Virus record (IMG/VR): IMGVR_UViG_3300045988_161343
From: a virus
DNA: 46,185 bases
Direction: 5' to 3' (one strand)
Shown here: piece after piece, positions 3,413 through 41,968 of the stretch
How positions within the stretch are numbered: the first letter of the stretch is position 1
Layout of the letters: every line of letters starts with the position of its first letter
Made by a program: the position numbers and the translations under genes
Notes under the pieces: generated by a model
The model's database searches: none
Seen by the model: the letters and a program-made list of their open reading frames with translations, nothing else
What the model was told of the DNA's origin: nothing

Positions 3413-3703
3413 ATGGATAAAACTTTATTCGCCAAACTTACTACTCTTACATCTGAAGCAGAAGTCAATAAAGAACGTCGGGCAACTGAAAAGGCAGAGC
3501 AAATCATCGCAAATAATACACCAGCAATGTTGCAAGCGGCAACAAATGGTGCTTACGCTTATACCATTGTCATTTCTCCCGATGATACTCCCTCGTCAAA
3601 CAATTATACCGTTAAGAAACTTCAAGAAATTCTTAACTCTAATAACTTCACAACTCAATATTTCCAAGATAATACAATGATTGTTAGGTGGCGTGACGCA
3701 TGA
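3413..3703 (+). CDS. Hypothetical protein, 96 aa
   Basis: ORF track; SD GAGGAG. Confidence 0.55.
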   Translation: MDKTLFAKLTTLTSEAEVNKERRATEKAEQIIANNTPAMLQAATNGAYAYTIVISPDDTPSSNNYTVKKLQEILNSNNFTTQYFQDNTMIVRWRDA

Positions 3704-3975
3704 ATCTTGATGAATATCTTGACCGTGCAACTGAAATGCGAAACGAGATTGCCGCATATGATGAGAAGATAGTACGCCTTTTGGACGAAAGAGTTCAATT
3801 GGCAAAAAACTTGGTAGAACTCAAAAAAGAACATTCTCGTCCCGCATATACACCAATAGTAGAAGAAAAGAAGATAGAATATTTGAGCACTCTAACTTCT
3901 TATCCAGATTTAATCAAAATGGTATGGCCTATGATTATGGGCTATAGCCGCATCCCCTATAACGAAAGGATTTAA
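3700..3975 (+). CDS. Chorismate mutase-like (AroQ-class) protein, 91 aa
   Basis: MNLDEYLDRATEMRNEIAAYDEKIVRLLDERVQLAKNLVELKK...RP...EEKKIEYL follows the AroQ helix pattern (L..LR..ID.ID..I..LL.ER..L....K). Size is typical of AroQ. Confidence 0.5.
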   Translation: MNLDEYLDRATEMRNEIAAYDEKIVRLLDERVQLAKNLVELKKEHSRPAYTPIVEEKKIEYLSTLTSYPDLIKMVWPMIMGYSRIPYNERI

Positions 3976-4155: not shown

Positions 4156-5505
4156 ATGGATATTAATCACTGTGGTTATATTGTAAAAGTTAAAGAACTG
4201 CGGGCACACCCTAATGCAGACAAGCTCTACATCGCAACTTTCTTCGGCAATGATACTTGCGTTTCCATTGATACGCAGGTTGGCGATATTGGTGTCTACT
4301 TCCCCTGCGACCTCCAGCTTTCCCTCGAATTTTGCATCGCCAATCATCTGTGCCGCAAGCTTCCCGATGGGACTGCTGACACTGGTTATATGGAAGTAGA
4401 TAAGCGTAATATTACTGCTATCAGACTGCGTGGCGAACGTTCCGATGGTCTGTATCTGCCGATTAGCTGTTTCAATTATTGCTATGACGATAATGCAAGT
4501 GCTTATCTAAAGGTGGGCGACATTATTAACGAAGTTAATGGTCATCCTATCTGCAATAAGTATATTCCGCGTACTAGAAAGCAGAATAATACCAATAACT
4601 CTAATGTGAGCAAGACTCGCAAGCATAAGGATCCGATTGCTCCTCTGTTCAAAGAGCATATTGATACTGCCCAGCTTGCTTATAACCTTAATGCATTCAA
4701 GCCTGGCGACCTTATTGAAATTACTCGTAAGCTCCATGGTACTTCTGCACGAATCGGCTATCTGCCTGTTCTCAAGGGCTATAAGCGTACTCTGTGGGAT
4801 AAGATTACTCGTAAAGATGGCAAACCTATCTATCAGTATGATTACATTGACGGCACTCGCCGCACTCTGCTAGTCAGCTATGATGGCGGCTTCTATGGTT
4901 CTAATGAATTCCGTAAGCATTTCCATGAAGCAATTAAAGGCAAGCTGCATGAAGGCGAAACCTGTTATGCTGAAATTATTGGTTTTACTGATGATGGCGT
5001 GCCGATTATGGGTTCTGTTTCCAATAAGAAAACCAACGATAAGGCATTCATTAAGCAATATGGCGATATGACTACCTTCTCTTATGGCTGCGACCCTACT
5101 GGTGTTACTGCTCCGAAGAACGATTTTTATGTTTATCGTATGACTCTAACTACTCATGATGGTTATACTGTGGAATATTCTCCTGAATATACTCGGTATC
5201 GTTGTGAACAGATGGGCGTAAAATTCGTTCCTGTTGAATGGCGTGGCTATATCCCCGAGCATCCGGCATCTGAAAATGATGATACTATCACCGCAGGCGA
5301 ATGGATTATGAATAAGGCAGAACAGTATTATGATGGTCCTGAGCCGATTGATCCGCGACATGTGCGTGAAGGCGTCGTTGTGCGTCTGGTTGATAAGCCT
5401 TCTTTCACAGCATATAAAATCAAGAATTTCTCCTTCAAGTGTATTGAAGGAATTGCGGTTGCTGATACTACTCCAGTAGATGAAACAATCGCGGAGGAAC
5501 TGTGA
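4156..5505 (+). CDS. ATP-dependent RNA ligase (Rnl2/Rnl5-like nucleotidyltransferase) with an N-terminal tRNA-binding OB (Myf/EMAP-type) domain, 449 aa
   Basis: N-terminus HPNADKLYIATFFGND...VSIDTQVGDIGV...RGERSDGLYLPISCF matches the tRNA_bind fold. Ligase motifs: I RKLHGTS (KxHG), IV EGVVVR, V YKIKN. Confidence 0.7.
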   Translation: MDINHCGYIVKVKELRAHPNADKLYIATFFGNDTCVSIDTQVGDIGVYFPCDLQLSLEFCIANHLCRKLPDGTADTGYMEVDKRNITAIRLRGERSDGLYLPISCFNYCYDDNASAYLKVGDIINEVNGHPICNKYIPRTRKQNNTNNSNVSKTRKHKDPIAPLFKEHIDTAQLAYNLNAFKPGDLIEITRKLHGTSARIGYLPVLKGYKRTLWDKITRKDGKPIYQYDYIDGTRRTLLVSYDGGFYGSNEFRKHFHEAIKGKLHEGETCYAEIIGFTDDGVPIMGSVSNKKTNDKAFIKQYGDMTTFSYGCDPTGVTAPKNDFYVYRMTLTTHDGYTVEYSPEYTRYRCEQMGVKFVPVEWRGYIPEHPASENDDTITAGEWIMNKAEQYYDGPEPIDPRHVREGVVVRLVDKPSFTAYKIKNFSFKCIEGIAVADTTPVDETIAEEL

Positions 5506-6116: not shown

Positions 6117-6443
6117 ATGAAACGTTATGTTGTATATCATCAGGAATGGCAAGATGATGCTGAAATCGAAACTGTATGTGATACAAAAGCAGACGCTGAA
6201 GAATTTCTCCTTGCCCTTATTGAAGGACAAGATTATGAAAACTTCTTCTATGAATATGTAGCAAGAATTTGTATCCAAAACCCTATGCAAGCTTATCTTG
6301 ATACTTGGAAAAATCGCACTGAATGGCATAATGAATACCTAAATTATGCGTCCTATAAGAAGAAAAACTCTTTAAGTATGGAAGCATATATCCTTTATGA
6401 TTTATCTATGAGTTATTATATTTGTGAAGTGGAGGGCTATTAA
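6117..6443 (+). CDS. Paralog 1 of a tandem small-protein family (C.T.ADAEE.L motif), 108 aa
   Basis: VCDTKADAEEFLLALIEG motif shared with the next four genes. Confidence 0.55.
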   Translation: MKRYVVYHQEWQDDAEIETVCDTKADAEEFLLALIEGQDYENFFYEYVARICIQNPMQAYLDTWKNRTEWHNEYLNYASYKKKNSLSMEAYILYDLSMSYYICEVEGY

Positions 6444-6445
6444 TT

Positions 6446-6778
6446 ATGAAATATGTTGCTTATGATTATTTTGATAATTTCTATCCAGGTATTCTTGGTA
6501 TTTGCAATACTGAAGCTGATGTGCAGGAACTGATTCTTGCCGCCGCCGAAGAAGAAGCATATAGGGCATTCCTTGATGATTATTATTATGATGAAACTGG
6601 AATTACCGTAGAACCTGGTGAAAACCCTATGGAAGTTTATCTTAATGATAAAATTCTTGACTGGAAAGAGTATAACAAATTTAGGTTTCCATTTGACGAT
6701 AAAAATATTTCTTTCTATGGTTGGACCCTTGTTATGGCTGGTGAATATTATAATTATTCTATCGGAGAGGAGTATTAA
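6446..6778 (+). CDS. Paralog 2 of the tandem family, 110 aa
   Basis: ICNTEADVQELILAAAEEE. Confidence 0.55.
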   Translation: MKYVAYDYFDNFYPGILGICNTEADVQELILAAAEEEAYRAFLDDYYYDETGITVEPGENPMEVYLNDKILDWKEYNKFRFPFDDKNISFYGWTLVMAGEYYNYSIGEEY

Positions 6779-6780
6779 AA

Positions 6781-7056
6781 ATGAAATATTTAATTTCTGA
6801 AATTGATGATGATGCTTGTTGCGAAATCCCTCGATATATTTGCAACACTCGAGCAGACGCCGAAGAAGCTATCCTTGCATTAACTGAAGAAGATGTATAT
6901 TATCAAGCAATGTATGAAGGTGTAGATAATTTCTTCAATAACAGTTTTGAATTTAGAAAATCAAGACATCCAAAAGTGAAATGCAAAACTCATTACGGCA
7001 CAGCTCTTTGGTTTATGAGTGGTCGATTTATTATTGACGAATTAGGAGAATACTAA
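6781..7056 (+). CDS. Paralog 3 of the tandem family, 91 aa
   Basis: ICNTRADAEEAILALTEED. Confidence 0.55.
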   Translation: MKYLISEIDDDACCEIPRYICNTRADAEEAILALTEEDVYYQAMYEGVDNFFNNSFEFRKSRHPKVKCKTHYGTALWFMSGRFIIDELGEY

Positions 7057-7058
7057 TT

Positions 7059-7331
7059 ATGAAAATTTATACAGTTGTTGAAGCCGATTATGAAACTATT
7101 CTTAATATTTACTCTTTTAAAACTCGTGGTGACGCAGAAGAATTTATTCTTTCGTGTGTAGAACAAGAAAGTCTAAATACATATAATTATCTAATATCTA
7201 TTTATACTGAAGAAAATGTTTTAACAGAATGGAAAAGATTAGCTTCCAAATATAATAAAACTCTTGAAGGTTATATGCTTTATAAGGGTGGATATAATTT
7301 AAATGGAATTTATGAAAGTGAGCTTAACTAA
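7059..7331 (+). CDS. Paralog 4 of the tandem family, 90 aa
   Basis: SFKTRGDAEEFILSCVEQE. Confidence 0.55.
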   Translation: MKIYTVVEADYETILNIYSFKTRGDAEEFILSCVEQESLNTYNYLISIYTEENVLTEWKRLASKYNKTLEGYMLYKGGYNLNGIYESELN

Positions 7332-7607
7332 ATGAAATATGTTGTTTGGAATAGCTGCAATGATGATTTAATTTGCTGTGATAGCCGAGCTTCCGCTGAA
7401 GAACTTGTTCTATCTATCGCCGAAGAAGAAGCATTTATCGAATATAATTATGGCATTAACAAACTTGATGATGCCGATACTCTTGAAGAATATACAGATA
7501 CATTACGTGATTGGTGGAAGAAATATCAGTGTAGTAATGAATGTATTGCTCTTTTCTTTGGCGGAATTAATTACTATATTAGAGCTATTCCAAGTTTGGA
7601 GGATTAA
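7332..7607 (+). CDS. Paralog 5 of the tandem family, 91 aa
   Basis: CCDSRASAEELVLSIAEEE. Confidence 0.55.
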   Translation: MKYVVWNSCNDDLICCDSRASAEELVLSIAEEEAFIEYNYGINKLDDADTLEEYTDTLRDWWKKYQCSNECIALFFGGINYYIRAIPSLED

Positions 7608-7609
7608 AT

Positions 7610-7840
7610 ATGTATTTTAGATATAAAGTAAACTGGAATTTTGATGACAAGTCAAAAGATGAGACAGGACTTGTGTATTCTGATAATGACGTTGATGAAG
7701 GATATACTAATGCTATGGAAAAGATTTGCCAGTATTTTGATAGCATCAATAAGGTAGAGCTTGAAGCATTTGCTCCTGATGATTGTCTTGAAGTAAGTGC
7801 CGAAGCACTTGATGCAATTCAGGAGAATGTATTGTGGTAA
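7610..7840 (+). CDS. Hypothetical acidic protein, 76 aa
   Basis: ORF track; 3-nt spacing from the previous gene. Confidence 0.45.
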   Translation: MYFRYKVNWNFDDKSKDETGLVYSDNDVDEGYTNAMEKICQYFDSINKVELEAFAPDDCLEVSAEALDAIQENVLW

Positions 7841-12197: not shown

Positions 12198-13355
12198 ATG
12201 AGTTATTTATTTACCAGTGAGAGCGTTTTTGCCGGTCATCCTGATAAGGTTTGTGATTAGGTAAGTGATGCTATTCTGGATTATGTCCTCCAGCTTGATC
12301 CTGATGCCCGAGTAGCTTGTGAATGTACTATTAGTCCAGGTCTTTTCCACATAATGGGAGAGATTACAGCTAAAACAGAACAATCTATTCCTTATCAGGA
12401 AATTGCAAGAGAGACTTTAAGGTTTATTGGTTATGACAATGATGAAGCAGGATTTAACTGCGACACTTGTTCATATATTATTAATGTAGTAAATCAATCC
12501 CCTGACATCGCTGCGGGTGTCGATAGAGATGGTGCTGGAGATCAAGGCATGATGTTTGGTTATGCAACTAACGAAACAGAAAATTATATGCCTATTGCCC
12601 AGCAGCTTGCTAACAATATCTCGGTCATTATGTTTAGTAAGTATAAAAATGATTTGCTACCTTGGGCGTTACCTGACGGCAAATGTCAGATAACTGTCCA
12701 ATACGATGATGATGGCAACTTTGAAGGGGTAGATACAATTGTCGTATCGGCCCAACACAAAGACAAGTATAGTATTAAGGAAATAACGCCCGATATTACG
12801 AACATTTGTAATATTGCCCTTCAAGGTTATGCCATTAAAAAAGATTGTAAATTTTATATTAACCCAACAGGTAAGTTTGTAAAGGGCGGACCTGCGGCTG
12901 ATACCGGATTAACAGGACGTAAAATCGTTGTAGATACATATGGTGGTTATGCACCACATGGTGGCGGAGCATTTAGCGGTAAAGATAGTTCTAAAGTAGA
13001 TAGATCTGGTGCTTATATGGCACGTTATGTAGCTAAAAATCTTGTAGCTTCTGGTGTTTGTGATAAATGTATGATTCAAGTTGCTTATATTATTGGGCAG
13101 ACAGAACCTGCATCTATTGATATTAATTGTTTTGGCACAGAAAAGAAACCTATCGCTGAAATTCTTGAAGCAGTTAATCAGACATTTGATTTTGCACCGC
13201 GTAGTATTATTCATAAATTTGATTTAAAGCATACTCGCTATTTACCCTATGCTTGCTTCGGTCATTTTGGTCGCATTGAATGTAATAGCCCTTGGGAACA
13301 GCTCGATAAAGTAGAAGAATTAAAAACAATTTTTGATTTTAAAAAGGAGAACTAA
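12198..13355 (+). CDS. metK: S-adenosylmethionine synthetase (MetK) homolog, 385 aa, with one in-frame TAG at a conserved Gln position
   Basis: MSYLFTSESV..GHPDKVCD(TAG)VSDA matches the MetK motif HPDKIADQISDA. Downstream GAGDQGMMFGYA, KGGPAADTGLTGRKIVVDTYGG and GGGAFSGKD are MetK hallmarks. The track only shows the part after the TAG. Confidence 0.8.
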
Positions 13356-15318: not shown

Positions 15319-15736
15319 CATGAGTAAGGTAATGTCTGGTCCAGGCAATCCTTTTGTATTTAATCAAATGGATTTTTTAATGGGTCGTATTAAAAAAGAA
15401 GACACATTAAATAAATACCATGCGCTACTTAAATCGGGTAGAGTTATTCTTGAAGACTATTGGTGTTGGCATGATCATAAATGGTATAAAGCATTAATTA
15501 AATGCCTTAACGATTTTTATATTGTAATTACTACTGAAGAAGATGTAATTAGTATAGAAAGAATAGAAAATCCAACAGTAGATTCTATCTATATGGAATA
15601 TATATTGGCAAGTAGAATGAGAGGAGATGAAATTGATGGCGACTCTATATATGATGTGCGGCTTGAGTGCAAATGGAAAGACTACATTCGCGAAATCCTT
15701 CGCAAAGATGAATCACATCCGATATGTAAACCCTGA
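15305..15736 (+). CDS. Hypothetical protein, 143 aa
   Basis: ORF track. Confidence 0.45.
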   Translation: MEEFNMSKVMSGPGNPFVFNQMDFLMGRIKKEDTLNKYHALLKSGRVILEDYWCWHDHKWYKALIKCLNDFYIVITTEEDVISIERIENPTVDSIYMEYILASRMRGDEIDGDSIYDVRLECKWKDYIREILRKDESHPICKP

Positions 15737-16172
15737 TGAATTGTATGCTGTCTTTAATGGTGATGAATGCAACCGTAGTCATAAGTTCGAAGTTTGGCAG
15801 ACATTGTATCAGATTGTGCATTGTGCAGAACTGGATGGTGTAGATATTATTATTGACACTAACTGTTTGACTCTTGGACAGAGAGAAGAAATCAGAAGCC
15901 GTTTCCCCCATTTCGATAGTTATCAGCTTATGGTTATTATCGCCAGCGTAGAAAATTCAAAGGAATGGAACTCCAAGAGACATAGAGTAGTGCCGCAGCA
16001 GGAACTTGAACGGCAGGCACGTATTGTAGACTGGCCTAATTTGACTGACCATTATAATGGTTGGAATAATATTAGATATTATTACAATGATGGTTCTCTG
16101 TTTACTAAATATCGTGAAATCTATGATGGCGAAGACCATGACTTGCGACAGGAGAAGGAGGATAATAAATAA
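15636..16172 (+). CDS. P-loop kinase, polynucleotide-kinase-like (AAA_33/Pnk kinase family), about 178 aa
   Basis: Walker A CGLSANGKTTFAK close to the N-terminus, then D..TN..L...R pattern. Start is ATG 15636 (SD AGGAGA) or ATG 15651. Confidence 0.5.
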   Translation: MATLYMMCGLSANGKTTFAKSFAKMNHIRYVNPDELYAVFNGDECNRSHKFEVWQTLYQIVHCAELDGVDIIIDTNCLTLGQREEIRSRFPHFDSYQLMVIIASVENSKEWNSKRHRVVPQQELERQARIVDWPNLTDHYNGWNNIRYYYNDGSLFTKYREIYDGEDHDLRQEKEDNK

Positions 16173-22111: not shown

Positions 22112-22328
22112 ACTGGTTGAAAAAACTGATTGGAATAAATATCATAAAGAAGATATTCTCGATTTGGTTAAAGAGCATCCTGAACTTCTGAATATGACAC
22201 CTGTTCAGCTTCGTACCAGAGCCAGAGATTTGGATTGGGATGCTGATGGATATATGAATAAGGTTAATAGCCTTGAAAATGAAGCGTCTTTGACTAGAGA
22301 TTTAATTGAAATCATGTATGGAGAGTGA
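22089..22328 (+). CDS. Hypothetical protein, 79 aa
   Basis: ATG 22089 in frame with track ORF 21930; the earlier part overlaps the upstream gene. Confidence 0.4.
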   Translation: MNIAELIKLVEKTDWNKYHKEDILDLVKEHPELLNMTPVQLRTRARDLDWDADGYMNKVNSLENEASLTRDLIEIMYGE

Positions 22329-22333
22329 TAATT

Positions 22334-23140
22334 ATGAATTACCATTCAGATAAATGGGTTATGGATAAGGTAGAAACTCATTTAGAAGCAGCTAATGTTA
22401 AAGGAGAAAATTGGGTTAGTTTAATGGCTTATGGTAGCCAGAACTATGGTCTTGATACTCAATCGTCTGATGTAGATACCCGACTTATTGTTCTTCCTTC
22501 ATTTGAAGATATTGTACTAAATAAGAAGCCAGTATCTTATACCAAGATTCTTCCTAATGATGAACACATTGATTTTAAAGATATTCGTTTGTTCATTGAT
22601 TGTTTGAAGAAACAGAATATGGCATATCTTGAATGTATCTTCACACCTTATAAAATGGCATCAAGCGTGTATTGGAATGAGTGGCAGGTACTGCTTAATG
22701 AGCGTGAAGCTATTGCACGTTATAATCCTTACAAGGCAGTTAAGACAATGAAGGGTATTGCTATGGAAAAATATCATGCAATGGAACATAGATATCCTAC
22801 TAAAACTCATCTGATTGATACATATGGTTATGATAGTAAGCAGCTTATGCATTTGCTTCGTATTGAACAGTATCTTGGACGTTATATTGATGGGGTTAAA
22901 TATGCAGATTGCCTTCAGGCTCCAATGGGTGATTATCTTCTTGATGTAAAAAATTATCACTATGATCTTGAAACTGCACGAATTATAGCAAATACTGCTA
23001 TTAATAATATTACAAGAGTAGCTGATGATTATTGTTCTAAGACCAAGGATGAAGGTAATGAAGAACTTGAAGATTTTATGAATAAGATTGTTTATCTTAC
23101 TATGAAAAAAAGAATTGTAAAGGAAATGTTAAATGTCTGA
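22334..23140 (+). CDS. Pol-beta-superfamily nucleotidyltransferase, about 268 aa
   Basis: GSQNYGLDTQSSDVDTRLIV fits the hG[GS]x9-13D.[DE] NTase signature. Confidence 0.5.
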   Translation: MNYHSDKWVMDKVETHLEAANVKGENWVSLMAYGSQNYGLDTQSSDVDTRLIVLPSFEDIVLNKKPVSYTKILPNDEHIDFKDIRLFIDCLKKQNMAYLECIFTPYKMASSVYWNEWQVLLNEREAIARYNPYKAVKTMKGIAMEKYHAMEHRYPTKTHLIDTYGYDSKQLMHLLRIEQYLGRYIDGVKYADCLQAPMGDYLLDVKNYHYDLETARIIANTAINNITRVADDYCSKTKDEGNEELEDFMNKIVYLTMKKRIVKEMLNV

Positions 23141-23337: not shown

Positions 23338-24117
23338 ATGTTCAAGGACTATCTGATTAGAGGCGATTGTCATGGTGATTTCACATGGCTTAATGCAAGA
23401 ATGTTTAGAATTTTAAATCCAAAAGACTATGCAATTATTATCCTTGGAGACTGCGGTTTTAATACTGGTAGTGCATTCAGAGATAATATGAAGAAAGAAT
23501 ATGCAAGCCAGTTTGGATATTTTATTTATTGCGTGCATGGCAATCATGAAGTACGTCCTGAAAATGTTGAAGGTATAGAGCGTATTTGGGATAGCAATGT
23601 TCAGGCTAATGTATGGTATGAGCCGACTCACCCTCTGATTAGATATTTTGATAATTACGGGATTTATTATCTTAAAACCGAAGATAGAGAATATCGTACA
23701 TTAGTTATTGGTGGTGCTTATTCTGTTGATAAATATTATCGTCTTAAAAACAATCTGCTTTGGTGGGAAGATGAACAATTAAGTGATAAAGAAAAAGTTG
23801 ATGCTGAAATGCTTATTCGACAAACTAATAAGCATTTTGATCTTGTACTATCACACACCTGCCCTTATTCTCTTAGGCCAGTTGATAAATTTCTTTCAGT
23901 AGTAGATCAATCTACTGTAGATACCTCTATGGAAGAATGGCTTGAAGAAATTAAGAATATGATTACATATGATGTATGGCTCTTTGGTCATTATCATTGT
24001 GATAGATTTATTAATAAGCATAATATTATCTTTTTTAATTGTATTGACCCTTTGGAGGATATTTTTCTCTGGCATGATAAAATGGATGATGCTGTAAATA
24101 ATATTGACCGCTTTTAA
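23338..24117 (+). CDS. Calcineurin-like metallophosphoesterase, 259 aa
   Basis: GDCHGD ... ILGDCGFN ... VHGNHE motifs. Confidence 0.6.
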   Translation: MFKDYLIRGDCHGDFTWLNARMFRILNPKDYAIIILGDCGFNTGSAFRDNMKKEYASQFGYFIYCVHGNHEVRPENVEGIERIWDSNVQANVWYEPTHPLIRYFDNYGIYYLKTEDREYRTLVIGGAYSVDKYYRLKNNLLWWEDEQLSDKEKVDAEMLIRQTNKHFDLVLSHTCPYSLRPVDKFLSVVDQSTVDTSMEEWLEEIKNMITYDVWLFGHYHCDRFINKHNIIFFNCIDPLEDIFLWHDKMDDAVNNIDRF

Positions 24118-24824: not shown

Positions 24825-25325
24825 ATGAGCGTAGTTGCCGCGAAGGTATATGATAATAATATTCAAATGTCTGCGGACAGTATTTTAACTAATGGATGGG
24901 AAAAAGACCCTAATACTAACTTTACTAAAATTATTTCTTTAAATGATATGATTGTTGGTAGTGTTGGTAATGCGGATGAATGTAGTCTTATGTGGCTGTA
25001 TATGGAAAATCATCAACCGCTTAATGCTACAGAAAGAGAAATTCTTAATTATTTTACTGAATTTGGTAAATGGAAAGGCGAGATTTCTAATACTCGTGAG
25101 ATTAGGAATAGTTATTTAATGGCTTTTGAAGGTCATCTTTTTCAGATTTGTGGATACTTAGTTAGAGAAATTAAAGATTATTATGCTATCGGTGCTGGCG
25201 CTCCTTATGCTTTGACAGCACTTCATCTTGGACATGATTCAGAAGAAGCTGTTAAAGTTTCTTGTGCTATGTGTTGCTTTGTTTGTGAACCTATTGTGAC
25301 ATATAATCAGAAAAAAGATAATTAA
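24825..25325 (+). CDS. HslV/proteasome-beta-like Ntn-hydrolase peptidase homolog, 166 aa
   Basis: MSVVAAKVYDNNIQMSADSILTNG resembles the HslV N-terminus (TTIVSVRR..VVIAGDGQ.T.G). GAGAPYALTALHLGH resembles HslV GSGG.YALAAARAL. Confidence 0.45.
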   Translation: MSVVAAKVYDNNIQMSADSILTNGWEKDPNTNFTKIISLNDMIVGSVGNADECSLMWLYMENHQPLNATEREILNYFTEFGKWKGEISNTREIRNSYLMAFEGHLFQICGYLVREIKDYYAIGAGAPYALTALHLGHDSEEAVKVSCAMCCFVCEPIVTYNQKKDN

Positions 25326-28587: not shown

Positions 28588-29586
28588 ATGGGTAAAAAAG
28601 TTTTAGTTCCTGATTTTACTGAAAATTGTAGAGGGATTTTGGAAGGGTTATTCAAGATTAGTGAAGTAGGTCTTTTGAAAGCTCTCGGTGATTTTGTATC
28701 TAATAAATATTCTAATGTAGAGATTACAGAAGATTATGTATATGCTGAAGGTAATATTCCTGTTATGCTTATTGCACATGTAGATACTGTATTTAGACAA
28801 CCAATTCGTCAATTTACTTATAATGAGAAAAGAGCTGTTTATAAAGGCAAGGAAGGTCTTGGAGCAGACGATAGAGCAGGTGTTTTTGCGATTATTCAGA
28901 TTTTACGCAAAAAGTATAGACCTTATGTTCTTTTTACAACAGATGAAGAAATGGGTGGCTATGGTGCGCATATATTTGTTGAAGCACATCCAGTAGCTCC
29001 AAATATTAAGTACATGATTGAGCTTGATAGAGCTGGTGAAAGAGATTGTGTCTTCTATGAGTGTGAAAATTTTACATTTATAGATTATGTTGAAAGTTTT
29101 GGTTTTAGACAAGCAATTGGATCATTTACAGATATTAGTATTATTATGCCTGAATGGGAAATTGCCGGAGTAAATTTATCAGTTGGCTATCATCATGAAC
29201 ATACTCAAAATGAAGATTTGCATATTAGAACATTGTATAATACAATTAATAAAGTATGTAAAATGCTTGATGATATTGAAAATGCAGATAAATATAAATT
29301 TATCCCCAGCAAGGAATATCTTCAGTGGATTACATTGACTAATAAATATCATATGCCTTATGATTTTGATGATGATAAACTTATTAATTGTAGTTTTTGT
29401 AATCAGTTGTATTATGAGTGGGAAGATTTTCCTCTTGATATTGATGGAGTAAAGGTTCATGTATGCCCTGAATGTTTGGCACTTGATCCTAATATTCATC
29501 AATGTGAAAGGTGCTATAATTTATTTTATTCAAATAATATGAAAGAAAGAGTATGTGATAAATGTCGAGTCCCTGTTGTAATTTAA
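28588..29586 (+). CDS. M20/M28/M42-type metallopeptidase-like protein with C-terminal Cys4 zinc ribbons, 332 aa
   Basis: MLIAHVDTVF ... GADDRAGVFA motifs (HxD, GxDD) of the zinc-peptidase/deacylase fold. C-terminus CSFCNQ...CPEC...CERC...CDKC. Confidence 0.45.
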   Translation: MGKKVLVPDFTENCRGILEGLFKISEVGLLKALGDFVSNKYSNVEITEDYVYAEGNIPVMLIAHVDTVFRQPIRQFTYNEKRAVYKGKEGLGADDRAGVFAIIQILRKKYRPYVLFTTDEEMGGYGAHIFVEAHPVAPNIKYMIELDRAGERDCVFYECENFTFIDYVESFGFRQAIGSFTDISIIMPEWEIAGVNLSVGYHHEHTQNEDLHIRTLYNTINKVCKMLDDIENADKYKFIPSKEYLQWITLTNKYHMPYDFDDDKLINCSFCNQLYYEWEDFPLDIDGVKVHVCPECLALDPNIHQCERCYNLFYSNNMKERVCDKCRVPVVI

Positions 29587-33753: not shown

Positions 33754-34323
33754 ATGGATATTTAGATTTTATCTGTTTATGAATATTTATGTCAAAAATA
33801 TATTTTACATAAGGATATATTAAAACAATATAAAGGTATAGAATTATATAAAATTATGGAAATTCAAGATAAAATTTTTATTAATAGATATAAATTATTA
33901 TTGTAGATTATTAATAATAATTATAATTTTGATAATTAGTTAATATACACTGATTTTAATAATTTTAATTTTGAACAAAATATTAGTTATATAAATTATT
34001 GTTTAAAATTGCTATTTAATAATTTTAAAAAAATAGATAAACAATTTTGGAAAATTTTAGATTAGATTTATTTTTTAATTAATGGTAAAACTAATTTATT
34101 TTTATTGTTGGGAAATTTTTATTTGAATAAAAGTAATTTATAGCAATTTACTGAAGAAATAAAAAAAATTCCTGGAATTAAAGAATAGCTCTCTTTTAGT
34201 TATACAGCTTTAAATTTAGCTATTGAAATTGATAAAGTTGCAGAAAATAAAAATTATCTTAATGAATTAATTGAAATTATTGATAATCATTCACAAGAAA
34301 AAATTTATAAATTTGATATTTAA
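33754..34323 (+). CDS. Very AT-rich hypothetical protein, about 189 aa, with 6 in-frame TAG and no TAA or TGA
   Basis: In an AT-rich stretch, 570 nt free of TAA and TGA in one frame is unlikely by chance. The N-terminal part of track ORF 33448-33765 is in the same frame. Confidence 0.4.
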
Positions 34324-34378
34324 TAAAAATTAATATATAATATATATACAAAATAAAGAAAATAAAGACTTTAACAGC

Positions 34379-34491
34379 AAAAAATGGACAGTAAATCCGT
34401 CGCGAATGCTACGCAGGTTCGAATCCTGCCCTCCCCACCATTATATGGCGGAGGTAGGGAAGCGGTTAAACCCAGCGGAACCAAACCAAAT
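34379..34491 (+). ncRNA. Promoter-driven tRNA-like element with circularly permuted arrangement (T-arm + 3' acceptor + CCA, 6-nt linker, then 5' acceptor + D-arm), flanked by the inverted repeat AAAGACTT/AAGTCTTG
   Basis: gcaggttcgaatcctgc cctcccc a cca ttatat g gcggagg ta ggg aagcggttaaa ccc a gcgga. Acceptor strands are complementary with one C-C mismatch. The candidate anticodon stem tccgt/gcgga is split across the ends. Confidence 0.25.
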
Positions 34492-34585
34492 AAGTCTTGT
34501 TTGAATAAAATAATTATTTGATTTTTAATAAAAAATATTATATAATATTTATATAAAAAGACTTTTACAGCAACTTAAACTTTTT

Positions 34586-34660
34586 TCCGTGGTCGAATAA
34601 CTGGATAATTCATCAGAGTTAATTCTGAAAATAAGGATTCGAATTCCTTCCTTGGAGCCA
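34586..34660 (+). tRNA. tRNA-like gene with canonical acceptor, D and T arms, CCA, and a 6-nt anticodon loop (gTTAat); own promoter, flanked by AAAAGACTTTT/AAAAGTCTT inverted repeats
   Basis: tccgtgg tc gaat aactggata attc a tcaga gttaat tctga aaat aagga ttcgaat tcctt ccttgga g cca. Confidence 0.35.
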
Positions 34661-34742
34661 AGTATAAAAAGTCTTGGGTAAATTTCTTAATTTGAAAAAA
34701 TTAAAAAAATATAATATAATATATAAGTAATCAATAAGAAAT

Positions 34743-34891
34743 CAAATAAATGCTCTCGTAGCTCAATTGGTCAGAGCCGGCGACTTATCCAAGATTAGTT
34801 TAAATGGCAAAATAGTCTATGCGCAAGAAAGATGTAAGTTCAAATCTAACATCTTGGGCCAAATCGCCAGATGTGGGTTCAAATCCCGACG
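34743..34891 (+). tRNA. tRNA carrying a ~73-nt tRNA-like insertion inside the anticodon loop; anticodon after excision is ambiguous (UAU, UAA or CAA depending on junction)
   Basis: Outer: gctctcg ta gctc aattggtca gagc c ggcga cttat[...]aa tcgcc agat gtggg ttcaaat cccga cgggagc a cca. Insert 34780-34852 is ccaagat...gtaag ttcaaat ctaac atcttgg g cca (acceptor-like stem + T-arm + CCA). Confidence 0.45.
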
Positions 34892-34926
34892 GGAGCACCA
34901 TATTCCAATAGAAAGGAATTAAAATA

Positions 34927-35166
34927 ATGAAGTTGACAAATATTAAGCAGGTTGAAGATTTTATCGCAGCAGTTAATCGCGCACATAGTAATGTATGGCT
35001 GGTTAGTCCACAAGGTGATAGATATAATATGAAATCTGCACTTTCACAGTATATCGCGCTTGGCGCATTACTTGGTCAGCATGGTGATGAATTGGAACTT
35101 TTCTGTGATAGTAAGCAAGATGAAGGTTTGTTTATTGAATTTTTTGTTCGTCACCCTGAAGTTTAA
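34927..35166 (+). CDS. Small hypothetical protein inside the tRNA array, 79 aa
   Basis: ORF track; SD AAAGGAATTAAAATA ATG. Confidence 0.45.
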   Translation: MKLTNIKQVEDFIAAVNRAHSNVWLVSPQGDRYNMKSALSQYIALGALLGQHGDELELFCDSKQDEGLFIEFFVRHPEV

Positions 35167-35234
35167 TTGAAAAATTAAAAAAAATATTATAAAATATATA
35201 TACAAAATAAATGAGAAATAAATTCTCATTTGTA

Positions 35235-35312
35235 TGGGACAGTAGCTTACGAGGTCGGAGCATTGGTCTGAAAAACCAAAGGATGGAGGCTCGATACCTC
35301 CCTGTCCCACCA
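35235..35312 (+). tRNA. tRNA-Phe (anticodon GAA)
   Basis: gggacag ta gctt acgaggtcg gagc a ttggt ctgaaaa accaa agggat ggagg ctcgata cctcc ctgtccc a cca. Preceded by a promoter element and the aatgagaa...ttctcatt hairpin. Confidence 0.7.
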
Positions 35313-35390
35313 ATTGGTCTTATACATGGGGTTTCCGATTTGAACTAGGCAGATTAGTCACCTGCCGTTGGCAATAGACCAATTAAAAAT
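35313..35390 (+). ncRNA. Structured ~76-nt element closed by a 9-bp stem (AATTGGTCT/AGACCAATT) with an internal ggcag-attagtcac-ctgcc hairpin; not a canonical tRNA
   Basis: Immediately 3' of tRNA-Phe. Perfect 9-bp terminal helix. Function unknown. Confidence 0.25.
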
Positions 35391-35563
35391 AAACTGAGGC
35401 AAAGGGAAATCGGGTTTTAATGTATAGCTATAAAGAAATTTTATAGTTAGCTATGATGAACTTCATAGCAAAATCCTCTTGTAATCAAGCTAATTGGGAG
35501 AGGGGTAGCGCGGGAACGGGGAGAAGCGCGCTATAAAAGGTGAAATACTTCTTTCCACCATAT

Positions 35564-35639
35564 GCCGGTGTAGCCGAATGGCATAGGCGAATGATTTAGG
35601 ATCATTAATCTGAAGGTTCGAGTCCTTTCACCGGTACCA
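35564..35639 (+). tRNA. Class-I (short variable arm) tRNA with anticodon UAG; formally Leu(CUA-reading) but lacks the long variable arm of Leu tRNAs
   Basis: gccggtg ta gcc gaatggcata ggc g aatga tttagga tcatt aatct gaagg ttcgagt ccttt caccggt a cca. Confidence 0.55.
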
Positions 35640-35721
35640 ACAGTGAAGTAGTAGCTATATTCACTATAATCAAGGCTCGGTGGTTGGTGGCTCCATCGTT
35701 ATATAAATAAGCCATATATAT

Positions 35722-35792
35722 TACTTCTTGGTGTAATGGAAGCATGCTGCCTGAAAGAGGCGGAGGTATTGGTTCAATTCCAATAGAAGGAT
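35722..35792 (+). tRNA. Atypical tRNA-like gene (T-arm attgg-ttcaatt-ccaat). Anticodon arm is ctgcc-tgaaaga-ggcgg without U33, or a 6-bp stem with a 5-nt loop; no encoded CCA
   Basis: tacttct tg gtg taatggaag cat g ctgcc tgaaaga ggcgg aggt attgg ttcaatt ccaat agaagga t. One A-G mismatch in the acceptor. Confidence 0.3.
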
Positions 35793-36142
35793 TAATTAAA
35801 GCTGGGAAATAATAGTCGCCCATAACTAATTATTTAATATAGGACTATTATTAAAGGTTATTTAAGTTAAAGAAACGCGGTTGAAGTTATTACTTACTTG
35901 ATTATAAAATAACATGACCGCAAGACGAGTGTTTGAAGCTTGTCTATAAACAAATTCTTCATATGTTGTCTTTTTATACTTACTCTTTGGTTGTTTCTTG
36001 ACATATAAGTAAAAACGGAAAGGGAGTTAAAGGTTTAGCTATAAAACCGGTTTGTTTTTAATAAGATTTTTAAAATTAGGTGACAAAATCTTATTTGAGT
36101 GATGCTGCTCAAGAGGGTCCGGAACCTCTAAAATGCGTATAT

Positions 36143-36275
36143 GCGCCAGTGGCCAAGTGGTATGGCACCTGCCTTTGTGGGATTGATGTAAGTAGCATTT
36201 TAATGTATTGGTTCAAATCCAATATTCCGCACCATAAGCAGGGCAACGCGGGTTCGATCCCCGCCTGGCGCACCA
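36143..36275 (+). tRNA. tRNA with Gln-like D-arm carrying a 58-nt tRNA-like insertion in the anticodon loop; the residual loop could read UUU, UUG, UAU or CAU depending on junction
   Basis: Outer: gcgccag tg gcc aagtggtat ggc a cctgc cttt[...]taa gcagg gcaac gcggg ttcgatc cccgc ctggcgc a cca. Insert 36177-36234 is gtgggat tg atg-taagtag-cat tttaatgt attgg ttcaaat ccaat attccgc a cca. Confidence 0.45.
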
Positions 36276-36596
36276 GGTCAAGTTTGAGAAATTTCATAGA
36301 GCATCGCTGACGTTAAATGGTTCTTATATGAAAACGCGCAATTAGTATAAGATAGCAAAATTCTCGTAGTTCATCCATTAGAGAACCTTAAAGAGTAATG
36401 GAATAAGATTATATCATGAGAAATTATGTATATAGTTTTATTTAATTTGGTGTTGAACCAAATATTGTGAAATTCAAGCGAGTCTACCTTATTAGCCCTA
36501 CTGTAATAGCCAGTCTAATATGCCCTCCATACCCAGTGAGGATTTTTATAAAAGTCTATTTAATTTTTCTTGGCAGCTTAATTAAATAGACTATAT

Positions 36597-36673
36597 GCGG
36601 GATTAGCTCAGCTGGTTAGAGCGTTTGGTTTACACCCAAGAGGTCATTGGTTCAAATCCAATATCCTGCACCA
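36597..36673 (+). tRNA. tRNA-Val (anticodon UAC)
   Basis: gcgggat ta gctc agctggttag agc g tttgg tttacac ccaag aggtc attgg ttcaaat ccaat atcctgc a cca. Preceded by a 13-bp hairpin at 36555-36595. Confidence 0.75.
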
Positions 36674-36726
36674 ATAAATTTGAAAATTTAAAAAAAATAT
36701 TATATAATAATAAAGGAGATATTTGA

Positions 36727-36900
36727 AATGGCAACTACTAAGAAACCTGCAATTAAAATGGATAGCACAGAGTTGAACGAGTATCTTCTGTTCCGCCGTC
36801 GTAGATCTATTGTTCCGGCCAAGAAAGGTAAGGGTATGGAATATGATAGGGCGAAAGAAAAAGAGAAATCTGAAAAAATGATTTCTGATGAATAAATCGG
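36727..36900 (+). CDS. Small basic protein, 57 aa, within the tRNA array
   Basis: Promoter variant + SD AAAGGAGA; MATTKKPAIKMDSTELNEYLLFRRRRSIVPAKKGKGMEYDRAKEKEKSEKMISDE. Below track cutoff. Confidence 0.4.
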
Positions 36901-36990
36901 GTGTCTCTTTTCGAGAATTTATATAACGCATACTAATAACTTTGGAGTTGCGTCCAACGGTCAGTGAGTAGTTTTCAGGCTGACATTTAT

Positions 36991-37066
36991 CGGGCTGTAG
37001 AGTAATTGGCTAATTCAGAAGCCTTTCACGCTTCAAACCTGGGTTCGAATCCCAGCAGCTCGACCA
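36991..37066 (+). tRNA. tRNA-Glu (anticodon UUC)
   Basis: cgggctg ta gagt aattggcta attc a gaagc ctttcac gcttc aaac ctggg ttcgaat cccag cagctcg a cca. Confidence 0.75.
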
Positions 37067-37074
37067 TATGGTGC

Positions 37075-37151
37075 TATAGTTCAGTTGGCTAGAATGTCGG
37101 ACTGTCTCTCCGAAGGTCAGGGGTTCGAGTCCCCTTAGCATCGCCACATGC
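37075..37151 (+). tRNA. tRNA-Asp (anticodon GUC)
   Basis: ggtgcta ta gttc agttggcta gaat g tcgga ctgtctc tccga aggtc agggg ttcgagt cccct tagcatc g cca. Confidence 0.75.
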
Positions 37152-37247
37152 TTTTTCCTATGTAAACAATTTTGAAACATAGAACTTGATGGAGCGTTCT
37201 ATTAGTCTGATGCCTGCATTAGATTAAGTTTTATAACCATCATATTT

Positions 37248-37321
37248 GGGGACATAGTTTATGGTAGGAAAACGTTGAATTTAATTCAAAATCGAGGGTG
37301 CAATTCCCTCTGGCTCCACCA
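37248..37321 (+). tRNA. Atypical tRNA. The anticodon arm folds either as 5 bp + 5-nt loop or 4 bp + 7-nt loop ATTTAAT (anticodon UUA, ochre-type); assignment unresolved
   Basis: ggggaca ta gttt atggtagg aaac g ttgaa tttaa ttcaa aatc gaggg tgcaatt ccctc tggctcc a cca. One A-G mismatch in the acceptor. Confidence 0.35.
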
Positions 37322-37446
37322 TTTATGAAAGACAATACAGCAATTATAAATTTGCTTTGGGAGCCGTGTGTTGTAGGTTCGAGTCCTACTGTCTGGTCGA
37401 AGATCGGATATAGCGTAATTGGTAGCGCAACGTATAAAAATTGTCT

Positions 37447-37519
37447 TGTTAATATTGCGGGATCGTCAAGTGGTTAAGACACCAGCCTCATAAACTGGTT
37501 ATCATGGGTTCGAATCCCA
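37447..37519 (+). tRNA. tRNA-Met/Ile2-type (anticodon CAU), no encoded CCA
   Basis: tgcggga tc gtc aagtggttaa gac a ccagc ctcataa actgg ttatc atggg ttcgaat cccac tcccgca a. 31-39 is a C-A mismatch. Confidence 0.6.
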
Positions 37520-37729
37520 CTCCCGCAAGAGATACATTAATCAAGCCTCCACGGGGCGTATCTTGGGTAATGCTAATTGATTAAATGAGTATAATTAATA
37601 ATGTTTTATGAAAAGCCCACACAGCAACTTTTAATAGGATAAATAAGAAATTCTGCAAAAATTTTTTAGAGTTGGTTCAAATCCAGCAAATGATTTTAGG
37701 GCTTTGTTAAAATTGTTAAGGAGAAAATA

Positions 37730-37915
37730 ATGAAGTTTAATCCAGGAGATAAGGTCTGGTGTAAGAGGTACGGTAAGGGTAAGTGCCGCAAGGCTGATAA
37801 TAAAGATAATTTTATGACTTATCTTTTCAGATTTTATGATGGCACTTTGATTTGGATGCCGAAACATCTGGCTGAACATTTTGTAAGAGTTCGTTCCACC
37901 GAGGCCACGGTGTGA
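37730..37915 (+). CDS. Small basic protein, 61 aa
   Basis: ORF track; SD TAAGGAGAAAATA ATG. Confidence 0.45.
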   Translation: MKFNPGDKVWCKRYGKGKCRKADNKDNFMTYLFRFYDGTLIWMPKHLAEHFVRVRSTEATV

Positions 37916-38064
37916 ATATAAAGTCCGGTTATAGGAAATCCTGTCATTAGGCGGCAGGCTACCGGTAATCCTTTCTTATATATTTAAATATGTAAGGAAC
38001 AAAAACTATACAATAGATAGAGTTTTTACGCCTTGGCGCAATGCTTGTTTTTTACTATCTATTT

Positions 38065-38165
38065 TTCTATATCTGTTGGGTTGGCTGAGAGGTCGATAGC
38101 GGCTGCCTGCTAAGCAGTTGTCCCTGGAAACGGGGACCAAAGGTTCAAATCCTTTACCCAACGCC
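38065..38165 (+). tRNA. tRNA-Ser (anticodon GCU), class II with long variable arm
   Basis: gttgggt tg gct gagaggtcgat agc g gctgc ctgctaa gcagt tgtccctggaaacggggacc aaagg ttcaaat ccttt acccaac g cca. Confidence 0.75.
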
Positions 38166-38171
38166 ATTATA

Positions 38172-38256
38172 TGTAGGAGTGCCAGAGTGGTCGATTGGGT
38201 TAGTCTCCAAAACTAATTGTAGCTACACGTCCAGGGTTCGAATCCCTTGCTCCTAT
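38172..38256 (+). tRNA. tRNA with anticodon CCA (Trp-type) but an unusually long, 15-nt variable region and a possible 8-bp acceptor stem
   Basis: gtaggag(t) gc ccag agtggtcga ttgg g ttagt ctccaaa actaa ttgtagctacacgtc caggg ttcgaat ccctt gctcctat g. Confidence 0.45.
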
Positions 38257-38659
38257 GCGTTATCAAGTAAGAGCCTTCCCGTGGCGATGATGTTTAAACT
38301 AATCTTACATTAACATACCCCTACTTTCGTATAATACGGTTAAACCTTGTCGAGGGCAAAGACAACAAGGTATTCCTTTCCGCCCCTCATATATTAAGAC
38401 TCATTTTCAGCAAACTTTTGCCTACAAAGGCTCTACAATACTTACTTATCAAATAATAGATGAAAAAGTATAATAAAGAAAATAAAGTATATTTTGAAAA
38501 GTTTTTTCTTTTTAGCTGGTTTAGTAAGCTAAATTCCGCGTTTTTATTTTGGCTTTTCAATGAGTCTTGTTTTTAAAATAATTGGTATCGCTAAGCTTCA
38601 TGGTAATTGTGGCGTATTTAAATCATAGATAGTTAAGGGTCTATAGCCAATTATGATAT

Positions 38660-38748
38660 GCGGAATTAACTTGCCCGGCGGTAAGCCTTGTCTTGAAAAC
38701 AAGTGGTCCTGTGATAGGGATGGGGATCGACACCTCAGTTCCGCGCCA
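38660..38748 (+). tRNA. tRNA-Ser (anticodon UGA), class II, atypical T-loop
   Basis: gcggaat ta a cttg cccggcgg taag c cttgt cttgaaa acaag tggtcctgtgatagggatg gggg... gttccgc g cca. Overlaps spurious track ORF 38653-38901. Confidence 0.5.
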
Positions 38749-38788
38749 CTCGTTTCAAATTCGTTCATTGCATTTCATCCTTTCTATA

Positions 38789-38830
38789 AAGATGGACTGA
38801 TTAGATTAATCAATCCATCTTTTTTTTTAT
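38789..38830 (+). terminator. Rho-independent terminator closing the tRNA array
   Basis: aagatgga-ctgattagattaatcaa-tccatct followed by TTTTTTTTT. Confidence 0.65.
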
Positions 38831-38980
38831 ATATTTTAAAGACAGTAGGTTATAGATTGCTCGGGCCGGCTTGGACCATTAAAACCGAATGCTTAAATTA
38901 AAATTCCATTTAAGAAATTTTCGGTCCAACAGGTATAGAGCAATATAAAATAATTTTAAATATGAAAGGAGAAGGACAAT

Positions 38981-39094
38981 ATGAAAATGTTTATTCTTTC
39001 ATATAAGGGCGGCAAAGATGGCGGCGATATTGACAAAGAAGATACTTCCAAGTCAACAGGCGGCTGGGATGGCGGCTCTATAGATGATGATTAA
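38981..39094 (+). CDS. Small Gly/Asp-rich protein, 37 aa, first gene of the late block
   Basis: SD AAAGGAGAAGG; MKMFILSYKGGKDGGDIDKEDTSKSTGGWDGGSIDDD. Confidence 0.35.
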   Translation: MKMFILSYKGGKDGGDIDKEDTSKSTGGWDGGSIDDD

Positions 39095-40704: not shown

Positions 40705-40726
40705 TTTTATAGGAGGAAAATAATTT

Positions 40727-41950: not shown

Positions 41951-41968
41951 AAGGAGGAATAATATAAT

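Follow-up and report, generated by a model that had tools for sequence, protein, structure and literature searches.

A 46,185-nucleotide stretch of viral DNA (IMG/VR record IMGVR_UViG_3300045988_161343), referred to throughout as the window, encodes an ATP-dependent RNA ligase that is probably the sealing enzyme of a phage heal-and-seal RNA repair pathway. As judged from its sequence and predicted fold, this gut-phage ligase is an ordinary member of a known family of RNA-joining enzymes: it has the Rnl5 (DraRnl/NgrRnl) architecture and is a new, divergent member of a large phage clade (phrog_968/PHA02142). What is observed is the family to which it belongs, the conservation of its catalytic residues, its fold and the conserved linkage of its gene. 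A heal-and-seal kit is the best reading because the ligase, a polynucleotide kinase (Pnk)-like kinase, a Pol-beta nucleotidyltransferase (NTase) and a metallophosphoesterase recur as a neighbourhood in related phages, a pattern supported by the gene counts given below. The window also carries two tRNA genes interrupted by tRNA-like inserts, and the possibility that the ligase takes part in their removal is raised tentatively.

The ligase and its family

The original prediction, made from the window's letters, had described a 449-aa product as an Rnl2/Rnl5-like RNA ligase fused to a tRNA-binding OB domain and belonging to a tRNA repair toolkit. The open reading frame (ORF) is confirmed, and all of the quoted motifs are present in its translation. 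In an alignment of 30 homologs sharing 30-56% identity, K192, G195, E273, E405, G406 and K421/K423 are invariant, and the motif residues K192, E273, E405 and K421/K423 are also invariant in 50 closer homologs.

Family searches and structure prediction agree on the assignment. The ligase matches PF09414 (RNA_ligase) in Pfam at 32.7 bits, above the gathering threshold of 27, and phrog_968 ("RNA ligase") in PHROG over its full length at 9.4e-64. NgrRnl (PDB 5cot) is its top match both by sequence profile, in which ligase residues 5-192 align with NgrRnl 8-177, and by fold, where Foldseek aligns the structure model to NgrRnl over the full length (3e-11). Profiles were needed for this result; a single-sequence search of the PDB gave a marginal match to MetRS-C alone.

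The order of domains is that of Rnl5 enzymes, with an OB domain (residues 1-135) followed by an NTase domain that extends to about residue 430 of 449. No C-terminal module follows the NTase domain, as is expected of an Rnl5 enzyme, which supports the Rnl5-like assignment made earlier. The fold of the OB domain is akin to the tRNA-binding OB domains of Trbp111, CsaA and MetRS-C. It does not match PF01588 (tRNA_bind), the family by which it was to be recognized. Its score against the PHA02142 OB-fold family PF21189 is 17.9 bits (gathering threshold of 27); several close homologs of the ligase carry PF21189, and the homolog from Lysinibacillus phage LC76P1 scores 34. The fusion of OB domain and ligase is the defining architecture of Rnl5 and hence nothing new (PMC1807946, PMC4408790). 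Since the OB domain of Rnl5 enzymes acts in lysine adenylylation and nick sealing and not in tRNA binding (PMC1807946, PMC4408790), tRNA binding by the window ligase is suggested by its fold only.

Residues known to be essential in the N-domain or linker of Rnl5 enzymes include K26, Q31 and R79 of DraRnl and K121 of NgrRnl. When the window ligase is aligned by hidden Markov model with NgrRnl, its LRGERSDG segment (containing R92) stands opposite LRGQLSQG, and its invariant K135 stands opposite the lysine of TKWEP, which is presumably K121 as given for PDB 6vt5.

Candidate end-healing partners in the window

All three partners proposed for the toolkit are present in the window (Table 1). The kinase has the P-loop GLSANGKT, with G12, G17, K18, D37, D77, R86 and R118 conserved, and lacks a fused phosphatase domain. 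A profile of its family, the window's sequence included, matches the CthPnkp kinase at 1.4e-23, T4 Pnk at 4e-18 and Pnkp1 at 3e-17; its best PDB match is the kinase domain of C. thermocellum Pnkp. Adenylate and shikimate kinases, which had been named as the families that would overturn the Pnk assignment, reach about 1e-3 with the same profile. A word-indexed search for homologs of the kinase yielded six close relatives only.

The NTase matches PF10127 (28.9 bits, gathering threshold of 23) and phrog_388, and so belongs to the RlaP family. The suggestion that it might add CCA is rejected, as RlaP is its sole Pfam match above threshold and an MTPAP-like match has E=0.06. Members of the RlaP family add 1-2 nt to damaged RNA 3' ends (PMC12776372), and the family is named after its association with RNA ligases (PMC12776372, PMC7824862). 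The metallophosphoesterase, which starts 198 bp 3' of the RlaP gene, matches PF00149 at 6.6e-12 (46.7 bits, gathering threshold of 21.5), as had been anticipated, and phrog_1649 at 7e-23. None of the three partners has a match in single-sequence PDB searches; the PDB matches of the kinase emerged with a profile. Pfam and PHROG scans of 30 other ORFs of the window detected no further RNA-repair genes (RtcB, 2H phosphoesterase, Tpt1 or Hen1).

Table 1. Features of the window that bear on RNA repair and on the interrupted tRNAs
Feature	Position	Strand	Basis
Rnl5-type ATP-dependent RNA ligase (449 aa)	4156..5505	+	Pfam, PHROG, profile and fold matches
N-terminal OB domain of ligase (about residues 1-135)	4156..4560	+	PHA02142/Rnl5 N-domain type
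Catalytic Lys192 of ligase (motif I, TRKLHG)	codon 4729-4731	+	homolog alignment
Ligase motif III, E273	4972	+	homolog alignment
Ligase motif IV, E405 (EGVVVR)	5368	+	homolog alignment
Ligase motif V, K421/K423 (YKIKN)	5416-5424	+	homolog alignment
Stand-alone Pnk-clade P-loop kinase (candidate 5'-OH end healing)	15627..16172	+	family profile
RlaP-family Pol-beta nucleotidyltransferase (candidate 3'-end nucleotide restoration)	22325..23140	+	PF10127, phrog_388
Calcineurin-like metallophosphoesterase (candidate 2',3'-cyclic/3'-phosphate end healing)	23338..24117	+	PF00149, phrog_1649
tRNA-Ile(UAU) with 73-nt tRNA-like insert (34789-34861) between nt 36/37; possible ligase substrate	34752..34900	+	ARAGORN intron search, intron-less homologs
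tRNA-Lys(UUU) with 58-nt tRNA-like insert (36177-36234) between nt 36/37; possible ligase substrate	36143..36275	+	ARAGORN intron search, intron-less homologs

Gene neighbourhoods in related phages

The linkage of these genes was examined in 80 viral-contig loci that contain a ligase homolog, with 3 kb inspected on each side. A Pnk-like kinase is found within this distance in 41/80 loci, RlaP in 37/80 and a metallophosphoesterase in 30/80, with at least one partner in 61/80; all 108 partner matches lie on the same strand as the ligase. The toolkit claim of the original prediction is supported by this recurrence. It also argues against the view, which is very unlikely, that the four window genes are functionally unrelated, with RNA the target of the ligase alone and the other three enzymes directed at small molecules, proteins or signalling nucleotides. 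Such a view would fit the distances of 10-19 kb between the window genes, the breadth of the AAA_33 and Metallophos superfamilies, and the lack of single-sequence PDB matches for the metallophosphoesterase and RlaP. Homologs of all three window partners, however, adjoin ligase homologs in co-orientation in many related phages, and the kinase profile belongs to the Pnk clade.

A complementary pattern among the partners argues further for a shared pathway. The kinases near the ligase comprise 20 stand-alone proteins and 19 fusions of kinase and HD domains. A metallophosphoesterase accompanies 10/20 of the stand-alone kinases and 0/19 of the kinase-HD fusions (Fisher p=4e-4, with related loci counted as independent). 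Since the metallophosphoesterase occurs only with stand-alone kinases, it appears to stand in for the HD domain in 3'-end healing. Stand-alone kinase plus metallophosphoesterase is also the configuration of the window, though its genes are dispersed.

Cultured phages offer several examples of the linkage. The genes for ligase, RlaP and an AAA_33 kinase with HD domain are contiguous in Lysinibacillus phage LC76P1, a Pnk (AAA_33+HD) directly follows the ligase in Bacillus phage vB_BcoS-136, and a Pnkp (AAA_33+HAD) lies about 3 kb upstream of the ligase in mycobacteriophage MiniMac. Homologs of the window kinase in cultured phages are all Bacillus-phage genes (14/14), mostly labelled polynucleotide kinase or ATPase. 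Matches in Nate, Izhevsk and Tsamsa overlap annotations of RNA or tRNA ligases, and the match in PBC2 sits 50 bp 3' of the ligase.

A predicted heal-and-seal pathway

We infer the enzyme activities, the substrates and the biological trigger of the repair kit as follows. The likely substrates would be host or phage tRNAs whose anticodon loop has been cleaved by defence ribonucleases of the host. The stand-alone Pnk-clade kinase would add phosphate to 5'-OH ends, the metallophosphoesterase would strip 2',3'-cyclic or 3'-phosphates, and RlaP would restore the one or two nucleotides missing from 3' ends. Joining of the healed ends by the ligase would come last, through the classic three-step ATP-dependent mechanism: Lys192 would be adenylylated with the aid of the N-terminal OB domain, the AMP passed to the RNA 5'-phosphate, and the break sealed through attack by the RNA 3'-OH.

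Several points weigh against this heal-and-seal reading. The four genes, at 4.2, 15.6, 22.3 and 23.3 kb, are spread over about 20 kb and form no operon, and the neighbourhood counts treat related loci as independent. The ligase scores 35.6 bits over residues 10-203 alone against the NCBIfam equivalog TIGR02306 (cutoff 151), a score that serves as the criterion of orthology with DRB0094; by this measure, the ligase counts as a family relative rather than an equivalog. It is also about 100 aa longer than NgrRnl, and its structure model is moderately confident (pLDDT 68.7). The window kinase is divergent: its identity to Pnks encoded next to a ligase is about 20-25%, and Tyr stands at the arginine position of the Pnk D-x-x-R motif. 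The sealing described for characterised Rnl5 enzymes is that of duplex nicks (PMC4408790, PMC5397189).

A different proposal is that the ligase seals nicks in RNA-containing duplexes and has no tRNA role, for example at RNA-DNA junctions of phage replication or repair or at guide-directed RNA breaks, in line with earlier speculation on cellular Rnl5 enzymes. Sealing of duplex nicks with a 3'-OH RNA strand by DraRnl and NgrRnl is the only biochemistry for the family, and a DraRnl knockout is radiation-sensitive (PMC1807946, PMC4408790, PMC5397189). The nearest structural matches of the window ligase (NgrRnl, T4 Rnl2 and REL1) are nick sealers as well. The proposal is nevertheless unlikely, as the ligase is tightly and repeatedly linked to a kinase of the Pnk clade, RlaP and phosphoesterases, an end-healing signature, and a separate DNA ligase is encoded close by in related Bacillus phages. 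The heal-and-seal reading, for its part, matches published comparative genomics, where phage RNA-repair kits composed of ligase, Pnk, phosphoesterase and RlaP have already been described (PMC7824862). To these known kits, the combination of stand-alone kinase and metallophosphoesterase adds a minor variant.

Interrupted tRNAs and a possible second role for the ligase

Anticodon-loop inserts had been invoked in the original prediction, and they prove to be real, interrupting two tRNAs with boundaries confirmed by intron-less homologs. Each insert opens with a 7-nt strand that pairs to the 7 nt preceding the discriminator base and CCA at the insert's end, and each has a T-arm with GTTCAAATC loop. 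The inserts thus consist of acceptor, D and T arms, discriminator base and CCA, with no anticodon arm, and each one scanned by itself fits the tRNA model of Rfam over its whole length (33.1 and 30.4 bits, above the gathering threshold of 29). Removal of the exact unit yields the outer loops CUUAUAA (Ile, UAU) and CUUUUAA (Lys, UUU), with predicted spliced junctions of ...GGCGACUUAU|AAUCGCC... for tRNA-Ile and ...CCUGCCUUUU|AAGCAGG... for tRNA-Lys.

The boundaries are fixed by alleles without inserts. For tRNA-Ile, an intron-less tRNA of contig L010 shares the D and anticodon arms, with CTTATAA as its loop. For tRNA-Lys, an exact-pattern search found no intron-less form, and the allele was instead located by synteny: contigs L092 and L093 carry tRNA-Lys(ttt) with loop CTTTTAA at the corresponding position of the tRNA array, and the L092 gene equals the interrupted gene of L095 minus 58 nt, one D-loop base apart. 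On the basis of these homologs, the identities Trp(CCA) and Met(CAU) given by ARAGORN were rejected in favour of Ile(UAU) and Lys(UUU).

The comparison of inserts covered a few related loci, which supplied four distinct copies for the 73-nt form and three for the 58-nt form. All substitutions in the inner stems keep pairing: one pair varies as GC/GT/AT, three others show GC to AT, GT/GC/AT and TA/TG, and one of the changes is a double compensatory one. Two outer tRNA-Ile bodies that clearly differ from each other carry almost the same 73-nt insert, which is more conserved than they are. Taken together, these sequence comparisons indicate that the inserts are real, precisely bounded and under structural selection.

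The inserts are apparently not self-splicing. No Rfam intron or ribozyme was detected at E<=0.1 in window positions 34000-39000, or at E<=0.01 in L092 and L094. Group I introns are rejected, as the inserts are 58 and 73 nt long, against a length of at least about 200 nt for that class, and no ribozyme core was detected in them. Bulge-helix-bulge (BHB) introns of the archaeal/eukaryal kind are rejected as well: in the predicted fold, an 8-bp helix comes after a 4-nt/5-nt internal loop and a 3-4-3 BHB is absent, and the junction is at 36/37 rather than at the 37/38 usual for BHB introns.

The canonical substrate of bacterial RNase P is an acceptor/T-arm unit that has U at position -1 and RCCA at its 3' end, and by these features the inserts would be RNase P-type substrates. 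It can be proposed, with reserve, that they are "processing-signal introns" cut out by host nucleases, with the exons sealed by the ligase, a role compatible with repair. RNase P would cut at insert position +1 to leave a 3'-OH on the 5' exon, and a 3'-processing endonuclease would cut after the insert's CCA to leave a 5'-phosphate on the 3' exon. Because these cuts leave 3'-OH and 5'-phosphate ends, direct sealing of the anticodon loop by an ATP-dependent ligase would be possible, and the healing step would be needless.

This splicing route is doubtful, though it draws on much of the evidence above: inserts of confirmed boundaries that match the tRNA model from end to end with covarying stems, a 73-nt insert better conserved than its two outer bodies, no match to a group I or other ribozyme, and U at -1 and RCCA ends that favour bacterial RNase P. 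In addition, sampled relatives keep a ligase at the locus, including the insert-bearing contigs 164317 and 166471, and the Lak megaphages, the only lineage earlier reported to have tRNA-like tRNA introns (PMC6784885), encode a distant homolog of the ligase. On the other hand, splicing of the precursors is a proposal from DNA sequence, and it would need a precise cut after CCA by a putative further enzyme. The ligase family is abundant in phages without known introns of this kind (for example, 296 mycobacteriophage records) and is hence not intron-specific; with RNA ligases common in large phages, the co-occurrence of ligase and inserts carries little weight. Moreover, the kinase and phosphoesterase point to breaks with 5'-OH and cyclic-phosphate ends, i.e., nuclease damage and not products of RNase P or Z, and characterised Rnl5 enzymes favour duplex nicks.

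If true, the route would amount to protein- or ribonucleoprotein-dependent tRNA splicing in a bacterial virus, distinct from both group I self-splicing and BHB/endonuclease splicing. No mechanism for tRNA-like introns of phages was found in the literature searched, and such introns have been without a proposed mechanism since 2019. Exact definition of the inserts, combined with a phage 5'-phosphate ligase that would complete their removal, is likewise absent from that literature. The larger value of the finding thus lies in a testable link: RNase P-type inserts, with boundaries known to the nucleotide, and a matching ligase in the same genome.

Longer anticodon-loop inserts were observed in related tRNA arrays, where a tRNA-Val(TAC) carries 480 nt (L092:5481-6037) and a tRNA-Asp(GTC) carries 464 nt (L094:1192-1730). 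These inserts consist almost wholly of an ORF for a PF11645 PD-(D/E)XK endonuclease, with about 40 nt non-coding, and neither matches a group I or other ribozyme. We take their endonuclease to be of the I-Ssp6803I homing-endonuclease family. Three other tRNA-like sequences occur in the window. Positions 37248-37318 score 47.7 bits against the Rfam tRNA model and receive no ARAGORN call; their anticodon arm, GTTGA-ATTTAAT-TCAAA, possibly presents a UUA anticodon (perhaps an ochre/amber-reading suppressor) or a 5-nt loop. A CCA-anticodon tRNA (38173-38258) with a long extra arm has its top score with the tRNA-Sec model (38.8 bits, below gathering), and a low-scoring "tRNA-Phe(AAA)" (35722-35792) has a mismatched acceptor stem.

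Distribution of the ligase and replacement of its allele

The ligase family is large: a search of 1.84 billion representatives gave 2237 clusters (50% identity, E<=1e-3). Matches were found in 380 phage records, nearly all of them labelled "RNA ligase", and identity to phage family members ranges from 27 to 44%, with 44% as the top value. Besides the mycobacteriophages, the matches include 15 "Prevotella" records, presumably the 15 Lak genomes; the Lak-B3 megaphage encodes a distant homolog.

A megablast search with 25 kb of the window revealed no near-identical record among deposited phages. As an identical ligase protein occurs on metagenomic contigs of up to 185 kb, the window would derive from an uncultured phage of about 185 kb. 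The 46 kb examined is part of that genome, and other ligases or nucleases may therefore lie elsewhere in it.

In the closest relatives among viral contigs (L104-L107), a ligase of the same family occupies the same locus (about 6471-7811), with motifs intact but only ~39% identity to the window ligase. The flanking genes are mostly 87-99% identical at the protein level (orf50 is 78% identical in L106). This amounts to allelic or cassette replacement of the ligase by a remote member of its family, as would fit a gene of host-phage conflict, and retention of the ligase despite the divergent allele may be read as a sign of function under selection. Presence of the ligase in relatives was scored by anchoring on the upstream CM_2-like gene; scoring of insert-bearing and insert-free contigs by ligase scan alone failed on account of the 39%-identical allele. 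The higher GC content of the ligase (0.43 vs 0.34) is rejected as evidence of recent transfer, since the small ORFs nearby are likewise exceeded in GC by the divergent allele (0.41) and the kinase (0.39).

The gene directly upstream of the ligase encodes a small chorismate-mutase-like (CM_2) protein (3700-3975). Just downstream (6117-7607) are five tandem small ORFs of about 90-110 aa; the first three share similar N-termini (MKY../MKR.. ... ADAEE), and copy number differs among sibling contigs. Some ligase homologs are split. P0123, P0128, P0136, P0138, P0150, P0217 and P0259 are about 790-813 aa long and match in two pieces, with the C-terminal part beginning at query residue 192 (motif I) in P0123, at ~226 in P0136 and at 210 in P0138. 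In Mycobacterium phage Hannaconda (H99), a partial match to the ligase is annotated as an HNH endonuclease. These arrangements suggest inteins or endonuclease insertions in the ligase gene.

Other features of the window

A gene for S-adenosylmethionine (SAM) synthetase (12198-13355) contains an in-frame TAG (12258-12260) at the conserved Gln of GHPDKxCDQxSD, and is called intact in a sibling contig. Two late-region ORFs (40724-41896 and 41963-44257) stop at a TAG beyond which their reading frame runs on. These observations suggest recoding of TAG to Gln (code 15) in the phage; no tRNA with a CUA anticodon was seen in the window. Additional genes encode an HslV-family peptidase (24825-25325), an M28-like peptidase (28588-29586) and a protein with an Mtd_N (major tropism determinant N-terminal) domain (40727-41599) that may be the target of a diversity-generating retroelement.

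Comparison with known systems

The window ligase resembles the Rnl5 enzymes NgrRnl (from Naegleria gruberi) and DraRnl (from Deinococcus radiodurans) in its N-terminal OB domain, C-terminal NTase domain and lack of a C-terminal module. Its motif I (T-x-K-L-H-G) is like the TEKLHG of DraRnl, and motif IV EGVVV and the motif V lysine are also alike (PMC1807946). It differs from both in its 15-19% identity (by structural alignment), extra segments in the NTase domain, phage origin, and linkage to end-healing genes. Aeromonas phage 44RR2.8t has been cited as encoding a DraRnl homolog. Closer likeness is seen with the PHA02142/phrog_968 ligases of vB_BcoS-136, PBC2, Tsamsa and mycobacteriophages such as Omega, which belong to the same family over their full length and have a Pnk adjacent or near. 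Unlike in these cultured phages, the partners in the window are dispersed, and a stand-alone kinase and separate metallophosphoesterase take the place of a fused HD or HAD phosphatase.

In phage T4, Rnl1 and Pnkp carry out tRNA repair that counters the PrrC anticodon nuclease, the known counter-defence logic against host tRNA-cleaving nucleases (PMC7824862). The window ligase belongs to neither the Rnl1 nor the Rnl2 family of T4, since their C-terminal domains are missing from it and an OB domain stands at its N-terminus, and the window kinase, unlike T4 Pnkp, has no fused HAD phosphatase. With the bacterial Pnkp/Hen1 and RtcB-RlaP operons, the window shares a Pnk-clade kinase, a calcineurin-type phosphoesterase and an RlaP NTase (PMC12776372). 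In contrast to those systems, its components are separate proteins, its ligase is of the Rnl5 type rather than Rnl4 or RtcB, and no Hen1 methyltransferase was detected in the window.

The Lak megaphages have "enigmatic" short introns in tRNA anticodon loops, one of which "itself may encode a tRNA" (Devoto et al. 2019, PMC6784885), and no mechanism or link to a ligase was proposed for them (PMC6784885). The splicing pathway outlined above, if true, would also account for these introns. The window phage is like Lak in its anticodon-loop tRNA introns, apparent alternative coding (TAG) and possession of a ligase homolog, but is of a different lineage of about 185 kb. Its inserts, unlike the Lak introns, are shown to be tRNA-like units that lack an anticodon and extend precisely from +1 to CCA.

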